Positions 548 through 47,134 of a DNA stretch of 64,000 nt are shown in pieces. Each line of letters opens with the position of its first letter. Position 1 is the first letter of the stretch. Source of the stretch: a virus. The notes under the pieces were generated by a model, which did no database searches, was not told the DNA's origin, and saw only the letters and a list, made by a program, of their open reading frames with translations. The stretch lies in the IMG/VR virus record IMGVR_UViG_3300031977_002889. One strand, given 5' to 3'. A program made the translations under genes and the position numbers.

Positions 548-1454
548 TAGCCATAATCTCTGTTAAACATGCAACAATATTCAATTCATGATCAGCAACG
601 AAAGCATTCTTATATTGATAATCTGCCAATATGAGAACGAGTTGAGGAATTGATTGTGGATTTAGTTGATCATACATACGATCATAAATGCCTCTAAATA
701 TAGCAGACGAATCTGTGTCTACATTATTGGCTACCCACTGTCTCATCTTTTTGAAATCTTTAGTCTTAAGATATTTAAATAAATCATCAAAAGAATGACT
801 AGAAGCAGTTGTCGTAATAGATCCTACGACACTATATTTTTGTAGTTCGTTTAAGATACGTCTCCAATCTGGAGCAAACTTCATGATAAGATCTACGACT
901 GCTTGTTGTTCATAACTTACACCTTCACGTTCTAAAATAACTTTAGCCCGTTTCATAAACTCAGCACATAAAGGCTGTAAGTCTTTTTTACTTGTATTAA
1001 ATTCAAATACAGCGCATCTTGAATGCAATGGTTCAATAATACGATTTTTAAAATTACAAGTAAGAATAAATCTACAATTACTACTAAACTCTTCAATAAA
1101 TCCACGAAGAGCTGGTTGAGTAGATTGCGCATTAAGATAATCAGCTTCATCAAGAATAATAACTTTGTATCCACCTTGTAAAGAAACAGTACTCGCAAAT
1201 TGTTGTAGAGTAGTTCTCAGTGTATCAATATTACCAGATTTTGAAGCGTTGATTAGAATATAATCTAATTCAAGTTGATTACACATGGCCATTGCTGCTG
1301 TGGTTTTACCAAGACCAGCAGTGCCTGTAAATAACATATTTGGCAATTCGCCATTATCAACTATTGCTTGTAGTTGATTTTTAAGAGTCTGTGGCAAAAT
1401 TGTTTCTGCCACAGACTGAGGACGGTATTTTTCAACCCACAAAAATTCATTCAT
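531..1454 (-). CDS. gp44: Clamp loader AAA+ subunit (T4 gp44 / RFC-like)
   Basis: LWVEKYRP, Walker A GTAGLGKTT, Walker B ILDEAD, SRC motif. Confidence 0.96.
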   Translation of the reverse strand: MNEFLWVEKYRPQSVAETILPQTLKNQLQAIVDNGELPNMLFTGTAGLGKTTAAMAMCNQLELDYILINASKSGNIDTLRTTLQQFASTVSLQGGYKVIILDEADYLNAQSTQPALRGFIEEFSSNCRFILTCNFKNRIIEPLHSRCAVFEFNTSKKDLQPLCAEFMKRAKVILEREGVSYEQQAVVDLIMKFAPDWRRILNELQKYSVVGSITTTASSHSFDDLFKYLKTKDFKKMRQWVANNVDTDSSAIFRGIYDRMYDQLNPQSIPQLVLILADYQYKNAFVADHELNIVACLTEIMANVEFS

Positions 1455-29089: not shown

Positions 29090-30643
29090 TTATCCAAATA
29101 TCATTGCCATTGCAATTGCAACACCAGTGCCCCCACCTGCTAAACCTTGAGATCCAGTATAACCGAGATCACCTTTAGCTCCTTGAGAACCAGTATAACC
29201 TTGTGATCCAGTGTAACCAATCGCACCTCGAGATCCTGTAAATCCTGTAGCTCCTCGAGAACCAGTATAACCAATGACACCTTGAGATCCAGTATAACCG
29301 AGATCACCTTTAGCTCCTTGAGAACCAGTATAACCTTGAGAACCAGTATAACCTTGAGCTCCTCGAGAACCAGTATAACCTTGAGCTCCTTGAGAACCAG
29401 TATAACCTTGAGCTCCTCGTGATCCCGTATAACCAATGACACCTTGAGATCCAGTATAACCTTGAGATCCAGTGTAACCTTGATCTCCACGAGATCCTAC
29501 AAATCCAGTTGAACCTCGAGATCCAGTATAACCTATACCTTGTGAACCTGTATAGCCAACGAATTGACCAACGTTAGTCCAAGCAGAACCATCCCAAATA
29601 TACAAATTAGAATCGGCTTGTACAACATAACCATCACCAGCGGTATTACCACTTGCTGGCAAGTTTCCAACTGTTGCAACAGTACCTTGGATATTCAATG
29701 AAGTACCATCAGCTCCTCGAGATCCAGTGTAACCAATTACACCTCGAGATCCTGTAAATCCTGTAGCTCCTCGAGATCCAGTGTAACCAATCACACCTCG
29801 AGAACCAGTATAGCCAATTACACCTCGAGATCCAGTATAACCGAGATCACCTTTAGCTCCTTGAGAACCAGTATAACCTTGTGATCCCGTATAACCGATA
29901 ACACCCTGTGAACCGGTGTAACCAATCACACCTTGAGATCCAGTATAACCTTGAGCTCCACGAGATCCCGTATAACCAATGGCCCCTCGAGAACCAGTAT
30001 AACCGATAGCACCTTGAGCAGCTGGCACAAAAGTAATTAAAATTTGATCATTATCACTTAATGTTATAGAACCACCAGCAGAAGATATAGTTGCTGTAAC
30101 AACACCACTTGCTAAAGAAAATACTGATTCAACCCTAAATACTTGGGTTGTTCCATCAGAAACATCGGCTGGTCTTATTTGCAAATAACCAATAAAATTA
30201 TTTACAGCATCACCAAAGTTATCTAGTGTAGTAAAATAATCTGTGAGATTATTTGCATTTGCATCAGTAACATTAATACCAATTTGAGTAGCAGAACCAA
30301 TAGCAGCGTTATTAAATCTTATTTCACCTGTAAGTGCTCCACCCACAGTAGTGCCAGTATCATAAGCATATAAAATACCTTGAGATTGTGAAGAACCACC
30401 GTAACCAACAGATCCAGTAAAACCAACTGATCCAGTAAAACCTTGAGATCCAACAAAACCAAGGGATCCTCTTGATCCTGTAAATCCAGCACCTTTAGAT
30501 CCAGTAAAACCTTGCGAACCAGTATATCCTAAATTTGGTTCAACAGTCCAAGAAGTAGAATTACTATCATATAGATAGTCAATACCATTTGCTGAATAAG
30601 TATCGTTGTGCGATGGATTTATTGGAAAGTTAAGTATAGCCAT
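29090..30643 (-). CDS. Collagen-like fibre protein with G(Y/F)TGS(Q/R) repeats
   Basis: Long Gly-X-Y tracts; N-terminal NFP.NP motif; C-terminal IAMAMIFG. Confidence 0.8.
   Translation of the reverse strand: MAILNFPINPSHNDTYSANGIDYLYDSNSTSWTVEPNLGYTGSQGFTGSKGAGFTGSRGSLGFVGSQGFTGSVGFTGSVGYGGSSQSQGILYAYDTGTTVGGALTGEIRFNNAAIGSATQIGINVTDANANNLTDYFTTLDNFGDAVNNFIGYLQIRPADVSDGTTQVFRVESVFSLASGVVTATISSAGGSITLSDNDQILITFVPAAQGAIGYTGSRGAIGYTGSRGAQGYTGSQGVIGYTGSQGVIGYTGSQGYTGSQGAKGDLGYTGSRGVIGYTGSRGVIGYTGSRGATGFTGSRGVIGYTGSRGADGTSLNIQGTVATVGNLPASGNTAGDGYVVQADSNLYIWDGSAWTNVGQFVGYTGSQGIGYTGSRGSTGFVGSRGDQGYTGSQGYTGSQGVIGYTGSRGAQGYTGSQGAQGYTGSRGAQGYTGSQGYTGSQGAKGDLGYTGSQGVIGYTGSRGATGFTGSRGAIGYTGSQGYTGSQGAKGDLGYTGSQGLAGGGTGVAIAMAMIFG
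29140..30010 (-). repeat. Repeats encoding GYTGSQ/GYTGSR Gly-X-Y tracts
   Basis: Recurrent ccttgagatccagtataa-like units on the plus strand, interrupted by one globular insert. Confidence 0.85.
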
Positions 30644-44574: not shown

Positions 44575-45498
44575 ATGAAACGAGTTATTTATAGTATTTT
44601 TATTCAAATCCCAAATGATGATTTAGATTGGCAACCACCATATCCAGGTGAAACTGAATCTAAAAATGATAAAGCTAATCGAGTGTTTTTACAAAACCAT
44701 GATTGGCTTACAGCAATGCAAAAGACATACGCTGAAAGTATCGACGCAGAGTATATACAATACACTAGAGATGACAAATATTTAGAATTTGAAAAATGGT
44801 ATAAAGAAAATCATACTGACGTTACAGTTTGGAATATTGTAAATTTTTATAAAATTCATTTAATGTATGAATTGTCTCGAGAATTCGACGAGGTTCTTTA
44901 TCTAGATATTGATGTTGTTCCTATTACAAAGAAAAACTTTTTTGCTGAACACGATTTAAATGAAGGCATTGCTATTTTTCAAAATGATCCAAAGGTAAAT
45001 GCATCTCTTAAAAATATAAGAGATCAAGCAAAATGGAGAGAACAAGTAGATGAATCAGCACATAGTATTAGATCTCCTGCTGCTAAATACTGGAATGCAA
45101 TTGCTTTATTATTAAATGAAGGAGAAGATCCTAAAAACTTTGTCTACAATACCGGGATTGTTGGATGCAATAAAAAATGGCTAGATAAGTTAGCATATTT
45201 TGAAGATCATGATTATTGGCTTGAAACAATGTCAGAATTAAAACATGAAGAAGATTCTATGTATCCTATGTGGATTCAAGAAATATTCGGGTGGGATAAT
45301 GAAACTTTATGGAGTGTAAAAAATAAAATAAATAAAGTGCCAAATATATGGTTACGGCCTGATTGGCACCACTTTATGGATAATCATTGTTATGTGCCAA
45401 ATGGTACTAATTTTATTCATGTTATTAATAAAGAATTTGATTGGGTAAAGGAATGGTGTGAGCAAAATAATATTCACCCAGTATCTTCCACTGAATAA
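44575..45498 (+). CDS. GT-A fold glycosyltransferase-like protein
   Basis: YA..I.A.Y, K..L......DEVLYLDIDV (DxD), NTGIV, DNET, FIHVINK. Confidence 0.72.
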   Translation: MKRVIYSIFIQIPNDDLDWQPPYPGETESKNDKANRVFLQNHDWLTAMQKTYAESIDAEYIQYTRDDKYLEFEKWYKENHTDVTVWNIVNFYKIHLMYELSREFDEVLYLDIDVVPITKKNFFAEHDLNEGIAIFQNDPKVNASLKNIRDQAKWREQVDESAHSIRSPAAKYWNAIALLLNEGEDPKNFVYNTGIVGCNKKWLDKLAYFEDHDYWLETMSELKHEEDSMYPMWIQEIFGWDNETLWSVKNKINKVPNIWLRPDWHHFMDNHCYVPNGTNFIHVINKEFDWVKEWCEQNNIHPVSSTE

Positions 45499-46138
45499 CC
45501 AGTTTGAAGAATACGCAGACTATATAGAAAATAAGCAAAGAAATTATGCACTAAAGTATGGAGCAACATATGCTCTTCATACGCCTGATGATATAGACAA
45601 TTATGATGACTTACAATTAAATAAAATATTGTTAGCAGAAAAATATGCTCAACAGTTTGATCAAGTATTATATATTGATTATGACGTCATTCCAACTGAT
45701 TATGCGCCTGACATTTTTAGAAAAGTAAATGGTCTAAGCTTATATCCAACATTTCCAAAAGTTGGTATGAAAGAATATGATAAGCTTTTAAATAAACAAA
45801 TGATGTTAGCGTCTGAAGGTCGTAAATATAATAATATCATTTACAACACAGGTGTTTTCCATTGTGATAAAGCATCAATGGAAGAATTAAAGTTTAGTGA
45901 AAGATTCGATGAATGTAAAGAGCTATGTTCAGACTTTAATAACGAAGTTTACATCAGTTATATCATAGAACGATATGGTTGTAAACACAATTTTTTACCA
46001 ATGTGTTGGAATTATATCTTAGATGGATTTCAAGAAATGCCAAACGCTGCAGGATATTTTCATCACTATCATCATAAAAAATTTTGGTGCCTCCTCCCGG
46101 ACTCGAACCGGGACGCTATTACTAGCGAGAGATTTTAA
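45458..46138 (+). CDS. GT-A fold glycosyltransferase-like protein (paralog of upstream gene); 3' end overlaps tRNA-Leu antisense
   Basis: DQVLYIDYDV, NTGVF, NNEV, WNY. Confidence 0.7.
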   Translation: MSKIIFTQYLPLNNQFEEYADYIENKQRNYALKYGATYALHTPDDIDNYDDLQLNKILLAEKYAQQFDQVLYIDYDVIPTDYAPDIFRKVNGLSLYPTFPKVGMKEYDKLLNKQMMLASEGRKYNNIIYNTGVFHCDKASMEELKFSERFDECKELCSDFNNEVYISYIIERYGCKHNFLPMCWNYILDGFQEMPNAAGYFHHYHHKKFWCLLPDSNRDAITSERF

Positions 46139-46170
46139 GTCTCTTGTGTCTACCATTCCACCAAGGAGGC
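46085..46170 (-). tRNA. trnL: tRNA-Leu(UAA)
   Basis: GCCTCCT/AGGAGGC acceptor, anticodon arm AGAGA-CTTAAAA-TCTCT, long variable arm, GGTTCGAGTCC, encoded CCA. Confidence 0.95.
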
Positions 46171-46172
46171 AT

Positions 46173-46248
46173 TGGAGCGGGCAATCAGGTTCGAACTGAC
46201 GACATTCAGATTGGAAATCTGACGCTCTACCAACTGAGCTATACCCGC
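46173..46248 (-). tRNA. trnG: tRNA-Gly(UCC)
   Basis: GCGGGTA/TGCCCGC acceptor, TCAGA-TTTCCAA-TCTGA, TTCGAAC T-loop, TCCA end. Confidence 0.95.
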
Positions 46249-46254
46249 ATAATT

Positions 46255-46440
46255 TGGCCCGCCCTAGAATCACCGCTATGCAGATCATCTTTGATTTCAT
46301 CCTGCACCGACGGGCAATGCAGGCATAGACTGTTACTCCACACATAGATTACCAACAGTCTAATCTCATCTATGTGACCTCAACATTTAGAGGATTTTCT
46401 GGGCGGGAGTGGAGGGTTCGAACCTTCTTAAACGCTCCCG
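46255..46440 (-). ncRNA. Unannotated structured RNA ending in CCA within the tRNA array
   Basis: Closing helix CCCGCCC/GGGCGGG-CCA, 9+9 bp pseudoknot, 9 bp hairpin with G-U pairs, upstream T-loop minihelix. Confidence 0.7.
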
Positions 46441-46446
46441 TTATAT

Positions 46447-46523
46447 TGGTCTCGGTAGCTGGATTCGAACCAACGACCTCTAGTACCCAAAACTAGCGCA
46501 CTACCAGGCTGTGCTATACCGAG
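46447..46523 (-). tRNA. trnP: tRNA-Pro(UGG)
   Basis: CTCGGTA/TACCGAG acceptor, CTAGT-TTTGGGT-ACTAG, GGTTCGAATCC, ACCA end. Confidence 0.95.
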
Positions 46524-46631
46524 TTAACCTTGTCCTCTATATTTTTTAAAACTACGTTTTGTGGATTTATTCATTGACGAAAACTTTACATTTCGTTTTC
46601 CGATAGAAGTTTTCTTATTACCTTTAGCCAT
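46524..46631 (-). CDS. Unannotated 35 aa highly basic peptide
   Basis: GAGG RBS; MAKGNKKTSIGKRNVKFSSMNKSTKRSFKKYRGQG; stop codon abuts tRNA-Pro +1. Confidence 0.7.
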   Translation of the reverse strand: MAKGNKKTSIGKRNVKFSSMNKSTKRSFKKYRGQG

Positions 46632-46649: not shown

Positions 46650-46726
46650 TGGCGATTGCGGAAGGACTCGAACCCTCAACCTACAGATTAGAAGTCTGTT
46701 GCTCTATCCAGTTGAGCTACGCAACC
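46650..46726 (-). tRNA. trnR: tRNA-Arg(UCU)
   Basis: GGTTGCG/CGCAATC acceptor, ACAGA-CTTCTAA-TCTGT, GGTTCGAGTCC, GCCA end. Confidence 0.95.
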
Positions 46727-46887
46727 ATATGTATAACATAATAACCGATAAGTCCGAGGAGGATCCAGCCAGCGTATTTGTATACGAGGCGGATCACTCC
46801 AAGGAGAAGTGCCAGAGCCACACAGAGAAAGAGGAGAAGGAGAACGGGCTCTGGCACCTCATTCAAAATTTCAGGTAGATTTTCCAT
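46717..46887 (-). CDS. Unannotated 56 aa membrane peptide; 3' end overlaps tRNA-Arg 5' end
   Basis: MENLPEILNEVPEPVLLLLFLCVALALLLGVIRLVYKYAGWILLGLIGYYVIHMVA; two hydrophobic stretches. Confidence 0.6.
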   Translation of the reverse strand: MENLPEILNEVPEPVLLLLFLCVALALLLGVIRLVYKYAGWILLGLIGYYVIHMVA

Positions 46888-47134
46888 CCTTTATTCTTTC
46901 CAACAATTTTTTAACTGTTGGAAATTCTCTCATTGCTAAAATTTCAGGTTCAACAGTTTCCATATGTACAAGATGTATCAATACATCCATCGTTTGTTGT
47001 TCGTGTTCTGTTAAACATTCACGTAATTCCATTAACTCTCGAGGAGTTTCACATTCCCACATCATATCGAGTAATACTACTTGATGATCAGTAAGTCCGT
47101 CTATTCTCATGCAGCCACATCCTTTGGAGAACAA
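46871..47134 (-). CDS. Hypothetical protein (probable start MRIDGLT)
   Basis: ORF in the early operon leading into the tRNAs. Confidence 0.6.
   Translation of the reverse strand: MFSKGCGCMRIDGLTDHQVVLLDMMWECETPRELMELRECLTEHEQQTMDVLIHLVHMETVEPEILAMREFPTVKKLLERIKDGKST

Follow-up and report, generated by a model that had tools for sequence, protein, structure and literature searches.

A family of covariation-supported RNAs with two pseudoknots in the tRNA arrays of uncultured aquatic phages

The minus strand of the window, a 64,000-nucleotide stretch of viral DNA (IMG/VR record IMGVR_UViG_3300031977_002889), encodes at 46255-46393, within a tRNA array, a genuine folded RNA, some 140 bases long and doubly pseudoknotted, that has been maintained in evolution. 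It belongs to a previously uncatalogued family (about 140 nt, or about 190 nt with the 5' hairpin P1) of eight distinct sequences, the window copy and seven further homologues from uncultured phage contigs; the carriers are uncultured aquatic phages related to this T4-like phage. The decisive support for the RNA is comparative rather than drawn from the single window, and its fold, strand, family, genomic setting and dispensability are all demonstrated here.

All stems that the initial annotation had listed on the minus strand are present at their coordinates: the CCUC/GAGG hairpin; S1, in which CACAUAGAU pairs with AUCUAUGUG; S2, in which UAGACUGUU(G) pairs with (U)AACAGUCUA; the CCUGCAUUG/CGGUGCAGG hairpin with its G-U pairs; the CUGC/GCGG hairpin; and a closing stem in which CCCGCCC (46407-46401) pairs with GGGCGGG (46264-46258), followed by CCA (46257-46255), AAUUAU and tRNA-Gly. 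By itself the window sequence is suggestive, not decisive. RNAfold assigns the 153-nt stretch -53.2 kcal/mol (z = -3.4), rank 5 of 1277 among minus-strand 153-nt windows, and two Watson-Crick stems of at least 9 bp are found in only 0.7% of windows; a single sequence is nevertheless not decisive, because 9-bp stems that allow G-U are common (651 in the 64 kb). The elements of the RNA are as follows.

46378-46393, minus: hairpin Pa, CCUC-UAAAUGUU-GAGG (46393-90 with 46381-78), from alignment A5.
46326-46376, minus: pseudoknot 1, H-type, formed by S1 and S2, from covariation.
46376-46368 with 46349-46341, minus: S1, crossing S2; 9 pairs, 2 compensatory, 98.6% paired.
46362-46353 with 46335-46326, minus: S2, crossing S1; 10 pairs, 3 compensatory, 96.3% paired.
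46301-46323, minus: hairpin H3, CCUGCAUUG-CCCGU-CGGUGCAGG (46323-15 with 46309-01); 9 pairs, 2 compensatory, 100% paired.
46290-46298, minus: linker GAAAUCAAA from H3 to P5, A5 columns 105-113.
46266-46290, minus: P5, a variable peripheral hairpin, with covariation at its base.
46290-88 with 46268-66, minus: base of P5, AGA/UCU; 2 of 3 pairs covary.
46283-80 with 46276-73, minus: inner stem of P5, CUGC/GCGG, of varying length.
46255-46262, minus: 3' tail, GCGGG (46262-46258) and CCA (46257-46255), from covariation of PK2.
46314-10 with 46262-58, minus: pseudoknot 2 (PK2), the H3 loop CCCGU with the tail GCGGG; 5 pairs, 3 compensatory, 100% paired.

The eight members are the window copy, L068, L070, L071, L073, L075, L076 and L078. 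Scanning IMG/VR for exact patterns, first from the H3 block and afterwards from the Pa block, gave L068 (= L069), L070 and L071, and one metagenome scan added L073, L075, L076 and L078 together with duplicates of L068. The members fall into two main clades; core identity among the eight is 62-89%, and the proteins shared by the contigs are about 30-75% identical to each other and to those of the window. Collecting homologues from phage tRNA arrays and testing them for covariation, as the initial annotation had proposed, gave a clear outcome: the consensus on alignment A5 comprises 40 pairs with 98.8% of cells paired, 12 of them with compensatory changes; none of 500 column shuffles was as high as observed, and sliding the partners by 1-3 columns lowers the share of paired cells to 33-44%. 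RNAalifold independently recovers Pa, S1 and H3. The H-type pseudoknot first drawn from one sequence is genuine, S1 and S2 being kept through compensatory changes in eight distinct homologues. About 15% of paired cells, counted over the consensus, are G-U, which are A-C mismatches on the other strand; the fold therefore exists only on the tRNA strand, and the minus-strand specificity proposed for it holds. The window copy carries all core helices and invariant blocks, all consensus pairs are standard in its row of A5, and it scores 164.9 bits with the family model R2, whose alignment included it. A chance structure, or DNA-level palindromes in a spacer, might be argued from the abundance of G-U-allowing stems and from the modest folding z-score, but it is refuted by the compensatory pairs across eight homologues and by the shuffles, and it does not account for pairing that works on the tRNA strand only; its probability is negligible.

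The stem and 8-nt loop of Pa are invariant in all eight members, and the loops of pseudoknot 1 are near-constant (5, 3 and 6-7 nt). The G-U pairs of H3 are valid on the minus strand only, and the H3 loop (46314-46310) contributes the 5' strand to pseudoknot 2. The linker is identical in seven members and reads GAAAAAUAA in L075; its last base, 46290, doubles as part of the invariant outermost pair at the base of P5. The covarying pairs of that base alternate among G-C, A-U and U-A in one position and among A-U, C-G, G-C and G-U in the other. P5 reaches about 85 nt in L075, and a hairpin at the P5 site folds in every member. A pairing of the Pa loop with the linker was considered and set aside: only 4 bases are complementary and all are invariant, so that no covariation signal is possible.

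Three pairs of PK2 switch jointly, half of the eight members having CCCGU/GCGGG and half GGUGU/GCACC; this switch may represent a single evolutionary event, since the family is small and its eight sequences lie in two main clades. Pairing all five H3 loop bases to the tail while H3 is fully closed imposes a strained geometry, and the top G-U pairs of H3 are probably open; if the invariant U-G pairs at the top of H3 came apart, a classical knot would result from a 7-bp PK2 (GCCCGUC/GGCGGGC). All members have CC directly after PK2; the base behind it is A in six of them and G in L075 and L078. An invariant AU stands one base past CC(A/G), so the conserved element extends beyond CCA (CCRN, then AU). 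At the other end, the optional hairpin P1 occurs in six of the eight as CC[A/G]GGUCC-loop-GGAUUC[U/C]G, with a loop of UUCG, GAAA, GUUA or GGAAA and one compensatory pair, and is absent from the window copy and L078. Another hairpin, P0 (GUCCCC-loop-GGGGUC), lies between tRNA-Pro and the RNA in L070, L071, L073, L075 and L076, just 3' of tRNA-Pro or 5' of P1, with U-rich sequence following in most members; this hairpin could act in processing or as a weak terminator.

In the window the RNA is set among the following features.

46650-46726, minus: tRNA-Arg(UCU), called by ARAGORN and Rfam.
46447-46523, minus: tRNA-Pro(UGG), the upstream neighbour of the RNA, called by ARAGORN and Rfam.
46400-46440, minus: a degenerate mini-tRNA remnant, read from the sequence.
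46173-46248, minus: tRNA-Gly(UCC), 6 nt 3' of the CCA of the RNA and part of the accessory block, called by ARAGORN and Rfam.
46085-46170, minus: tRNA-Leu(UAA), called by ARAGORN and Rfam.
46171-46445, minus: an accessory block of 275 nt (spacer, remnant, RNA and tRNA-Gly), from alignment with the sibling phage L001.

The remnant bears on the ends of the RNA, for which the initial annotation had proposed a CCA-ended, tRNA-like molecule with its 5' end at 46407. A structured RNA on the tRNA strand is upheld, whereas the closing stem (14-15 nt) and the 5' end at 46407 are not features of it: homology to the other members starts only at about 46397, and the tRNA-like reading rested on a non-conserved, window-specific acceptor-like helix. 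The present data point to none of the suggested roles in particular, whether aminoacylation, decoy or ribozyme. The remnant has an acceptor-like CGGGAG/CUCCCG and a T-arm-like GAAGG-UUCGAAC-CCUCC, followed by C and CCA, and the CCCGCCC of the closing stem is its 3' acceptor strand with discriminator and CC. Among the members, such a remnant adjoins the RNA in this window only. Because the 3' arm of the closing stem has conserved, covarying partners elsewhere (GCGGG with the H3 loop, UCU with the base of P5), the stem is a local juxtaposition peculiar to this phage and not a family feature; the earlier reading is corrected in that its acceptor-like stem is an accident of this locus. An extension of the stem, AGAAAAUC/GAUUCU, was rejected as well, the conserved partner of UUCU being the base of P5. 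The duplex energies are -14.9 kcal/mol for the closing stem, -12.3 for the 7-bp PK2 and -9.4 for the remnant's own acceptor. The CCCGCCC of the remnant can therefore trap the tail, and in this energy model the window copy might be partly held in the closing-stem fold, misfolded or crippled. An intact anticodon-less mini-tRNA, uncalled by ARAGORN and Rfam, is found in L068 (8150-8214, minus) between tRNA-Val and tRNA-Trp, apart from the RNA; it has a 7-bp acceptor (CGGGAGC/GCUCCCG), a D-like GUUU-GUUGG-AAAC, a perfect 5-bp T-arm, C and CCA. The remnant at 46400-46440 of the window is a decayed copy of this mini-tRNA.

Searches for known RNAs and genes at the locus agree with this picture. In the window array ARAGORN and Rfam call Arg, Pro, Gly and Leu only, with nothing overlapping 46249-46446 even at E<=10; an Rfam 15 search of the 198-nt interval between tRNA-Pro and tRNA-Gly returned no family even at E<=10; no member of the RNA overlaps any Rfam 15 family match, so that the Rfam search proposed at the outset gave no family for the RNA in the window or in the other members. 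ARAGORN and Rfam RF00005 find no cloverleaf with D, anticodon and T arms in the RNA, ARAGORN finds no tmRNA in the window, a G3:U70 pair is seen in neither candidate acceptor when read from the sequence, and no conserved ORF runs across the RNA. A permuted tmRNA was considered and rejected, as was mimicry of a D-arm or T-arm by Pa or P5.

Searches for further relatives yielded little. With blastn, the window RNA and members L070 and L075 gave no real match among 50,697 phage records; scans of 185,579 prokaryote genomes (species) with conserved blocks returned unrelated sequences only, and the S2-5'/S1-3' segment pattern returned nothing from the prokaryote genomes. Exact patterns for the junction of remnant and 5' arm and for the central segment TCTATGTGTGGAGTAACA had no match in IMG/VR. 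Searches with R1, a model of the single sequence, and with the family model R2 gave no further copy, either elsewhere in the window or in the 40-47 loci fetched. Following synteny of the neighbouring proteins led to identical (100%) copies in three JGI contigs or to relatives without the RNA, and thus to no gain in covariation; other phages reached through tRNA-Gly carry this gene in identical or near-identical form, and the spacers upstream of it are unrelated. Upstream of one near-identical tRNA-Gly(UCC), at L017:10964-11255 (+), lies a large structured region that bears a T-arm and ends in CCA, part of which ARAGORN calls as an odd tRNA with a 2-base anticodon. The motif could be among the 10,006 unnamed viral RNA candidates of a 2023 catalogue (PMC10690425).

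The genomic setting is consistent across the family. All eight members lie inside tRNA arrays on the tRNA strand; the RNA is preceded by tRNA-Pro(UGG) in seven and by tRNA-Met in L068, and the next standard tRNA downstream is tRNA-Gly(UCC) in five of the eight. Spacing is tight and thereby sets the borders of the RNA, with 5 nt from the end of tRNA-Pro to Pa in L078 and a 15-bp terminator-like hairpin beginning 5 nt 3' of the RNA in L068. In L070 and L076 a manA RNA (RF01745; L070:1405-1618 and L076:381-592, 62.1 and 59.3 bits) begins 8-9 nt 3' of the RNA, i.e., after the RNA ends, and the array of L068 also contains GOLLD (L068:9001-9447, 197 bits). A link to proline may be imagined: CCA and CCG are both proline codons read by the anticodon UGG, and the RNA usually stands behind tRNA-Pro(UGG). 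About 300 nt downstream of the RNA in L073, at 669-743 (+), there is a phage tRNA with a CUA anticodon (labeled tRNA-Pyl by ARAGORN), a candidate amber suppressor.

The nearby manA RNAs, and a Shine-Dalgarno-like AGGAA with an AUG about 25-35 nt downstream in L073 (seen by eye), would suit a riboswitch or cis-regulatory leader of a downstream gene, or an obligate partner domain of manA RNA. We consider such a role very unlikely: among the eight members the downstream neighbour varies and may be tRNA-Gly, a terminator, manA or an ORF, and there is no manA match anywhere in the window.

The sibling phage contig L001 (IMGVR_UViG_3300020056_001542) reveals that the RNA can be done without. Pairwise alignment shows the 275-nt block to be precisely absent between near-identical flanks, the L001 array reading Arg, small ORF, Pro, Leu; in the window the block is bounded at both edges by CCAA microhomology. 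As the glycosyltransferase-like protein beside the array is 98% identical in this sibling, which lacks the block, the block is accessory and the RNA dispensable. The RNA is absent also from other syntenic relatives, and the farther ones have different tRNA sets or none, while three JGI metagenome contigs carry the window array at 100% identity and Logan contigs end at the array edges. The tRNA-Pro of the window is 97% identical to that of the RNA-bearing L070 and L076 and only 79% identical to that of the sibling; these identities indicate that the Pro-RNA-Gly segment has moved as a cassette.

Several other observations were made in the window. Between tRNA-Arg and tRNA-Pro, on the minus strand at 46524-46631, is an ORF of 35 aa (MAKGNKK...KKYRGQG) that is very basic and has a Shine-Dalgarno-like GAGGA; it is near-identical in the sibling L001, matches phrog_17967 (unknown function, E = 1e-6) and looks like a genuine micro-protein gene within the tRNA operon. 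The most stable minus-strand 153-nt window (-60.1 kcal/mol, z = -5.5) falls in 46717-46900, just upstream of tRNA-Arg, and holds a 14-bp hairpin (GGUGCCAGAGCC.../...GGCUCUGGCACU); it shares sequence with a hydrophobic ORF of 56 aa that extends at its end into tRNA-Arg, and the structure could reflect a leader of the tRNA operon or a coding constraint. On the plus strand, a glycosyltransferase-8-like ORF (45458-46138) terminates within the antisense of tRNA-Leu (46085-46170, minus), and the Logan contigs with this gene all stop about 15 nt beyond its end, which probably reflects a population polymorphic for the array. In the virion-protein region, 29698-29910 on the minus strand holds the window's densest cluster of stems of at least 9 bp allowing G-U (up to 10 per 153 nt, -52 kcal/mol).

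By analogy with RNAC and RNAD of T4, we favor, with a probability of roughly 0.6, the reading that this is a stable trans-acting RNA, co-transcribed with the tRNAs and excised by tRNA-processing enzymes. The RNA would be transcribed together with the tRNAs of the array and released by the host tRNA-processing machinery, with RNase P cutting at the 5' end of the next tRNA and further cuts falling in the AU-rich spacers of 5-9 nt; 3' exonucleases would then shorten the RNA as far as CC(A), the invariant bases that flank the terminal pseudoknot. The product, we infer, would be a nuclease-resistant stable RNA acting in trans, as the T4 RNAs are. The covarying fold, the tRNA-array setting, the tight spacing to neighbours and the T4 precedent speak for this reading; the small size of the family, the sibling without the RNA, the possible trapping of the tail, CCG in two of the eight members and the strained arrangement of H3 and PK2 speak against it.

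Part of the same evidence could also be met by a cis-acting module that punctuates or protects the polycistronic tRNA transcript and has no function in trans, its knot blocking 3'-5' exonucleases or steering cuts by RNase E or RNase P so that the neighbouring tRNAs, notably tRNA-Pro, mature. Every member lies right against tRNAs or other RNA genes, seven of the eight directly behind tRNA-Pro(UGG); the spacers are AU-rich, and in L068 the RNA is the last element before the terminator. A divider would nonetheless need far less than a loop of 8 invariant nt, a 9-nt linker that hardly varies and two pseudoknots with covariation, the sibling phage matures the same array without the RNA, and in L068 it is tRNA-Met rather than tRNA-Pro that precedes it. 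We therefore regard a purely cis-acting role as unlikely, while ranking it first among the rivals.

The 3' end invites a different thought: H3, stacking on the knot of loop and tail and leaving CCA as a 3' overhang, would imitate an acceptor arm, as plant-virus tRNA-like structures do with their pseudoknotted acceptor arms. The CCA-adding enzyme, RNase P, an aminoacyl-tRNA synthetase, EF-Tu or a tRNA-targeting defence nuclease would then take the RNA as a substrate or be decoyed by it. The 3' strand of a classical H-type knot exits at the end of the stacked helices; here the pseudoknot lies immediately 5' of the invariant CC, which A follows in six of eight, and the RNA sits among CCA-encoding tRNAs. 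Such mimicry is quite improbable, however, given CCG in two members, the lack of a discriminator base if all five PK2 pairs form, the absence of T-loop, D-loop and anticodon mimics and of any Rfam tRNA or viral tRNA-like match even at E<=10, and an invariant AU after CCRN that carries conservation past CCA. It would be a long shot, too, to suppose that H3 and the loop-tail pseudoknot with the CC(A) overhang form a working acceptor-arm mimic or that the RNA self-assembles into RNA-only particles like manA. Were the mimic real, the host would handle the RNA like the end of a tRNA, adding CCA and cleaving it with RNase P, and the RNA might also be charged or be captured by a tRNA-directed defence nuclease; it would be the first plant-virus-type, pseudoknot-built tRNA-like structure in a DNA phage.

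The analogy with HDV-like theta ribozymes suggests an RNA that would process the tRNA transcript by cleaving itself or by some other catalysis. Theta/HDV-like tRNA-associated ribozymes occur in gut phages, and like the new RNA they are pseudoknotted and lie directly 3' of phage tRNAs; a double-pseudoknot architecture in that position and highly conserved unpaired nucleotides fit the analogy. HDV-like folds, however, need P3/L3 and P1.1 in a nested double knot (P1, P1.1, P2, P3, with or without P4), whereas the knots of the new RNA are serial and only 3 nt link S2-5' to S1-3', which leaves no P3/L3 or P1.1; the topology is thus not HDV-like. There is also no match to an Rfam ribozyme family, and the upstream tRNAs already encode CCA and a spacer. 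Catalysis would accordingly come as a considerable surprise, and we hold it to be very improbable.

The closest parallels in setting are the stable RNAs of T4. RNAC and RNAD come from the tRNA region of T4 and have unknown roles (PMC3014915, PMC9697503); species 1 is rnaC (139 nt) and species 2 is rnaD (119 nt), at 70908-71171 of AF158101. The resemblance in setting noted in the initial annotation holds for all eight members, which, like rnaC and rnaD, lie within a tRNA cluster, on the tRNA strand and a few AU-rich bases from their neighbours. An encoded CCA ends rnaD, and its CCAAAUUAU junction is also present in the window. Homology of sequence or structure is, however, absent (covariance models R1 and R2 found nothing in the T4 region, L031), and rnaC has a canonical T-arm beside an end-closing stem, whereas the new family has two pseudoknots and no conserved end-closing stem.

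Other phage and viral RNAs share single traits with the family. The manA RNA motif (Rfam RF01745; Weinberg et al. 2010, PMC2864571), which a preprint (10.64898/2026.07.01.735769) reports to assemble into cages of RNA alone, is likewise a marine or aquatic phage RNA of similar size with pseudoknots and shares arrays with the new RNA in L070 and L076, but it differs in helix order and conserved sequences. Membership in manA is defined by a covariance-model match at or near the gathering score of 55.2 bits, and the manA model has no match to the new RNA at E<=10 in the window, at E<=1 in L070 or at E<=0.1 in four further members. GOLLD (RF02032) and ROOL, large ornate RNAs seen by cryo-EM (PMC12286853), are also phage-borne RNAs of unknown function, and GOLLD shares the L068 array; they are 3-5 times larger (the Rfam GOLLD model has 416 positions), and no model matches the new RNA. 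Plant-virus tRNA-like structures such as that of TYMV resemble it in that a 3'-terminal hairpin loop pairs with the 3' tail, followed by CCA. The new RNA differs in having no mimics of T-, D- and anticodon arms, in the roughly 100 nt, including P5, that separate H3 from the tail, in the CCG of two of eight members, in being a gene of a DNA phage and not a genome end, and in having no match to an Rfam tRNA-like family.

The RNA thus belongs to none of the tRNA, tmRNA, manA, GOLLD and HDV-like classes, nor is it a homologue of T4 rnaC or rnaD. Orphan structured RNAs of phage tRNA clusters have been a known kind since T4, and manA, GOLLD and ROOL set a precedent for very unusual properties in such phage RNAs. 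What is new is a family of compact RNAs, about 140 nt long and well supported by covariation, that combine two pseudoknots with a tRNA-style 3' context and are of a size that suits probing, crystallography, cryo-EM and simple processing assays. Because it is tightly linked to tRNA-Pro(UGG), tRNA-Gly(UCC) and manA and is present or absent between near-identical phages, it offers a workable entry point to the role of non-tRNA genes in phage tRNA arrays.
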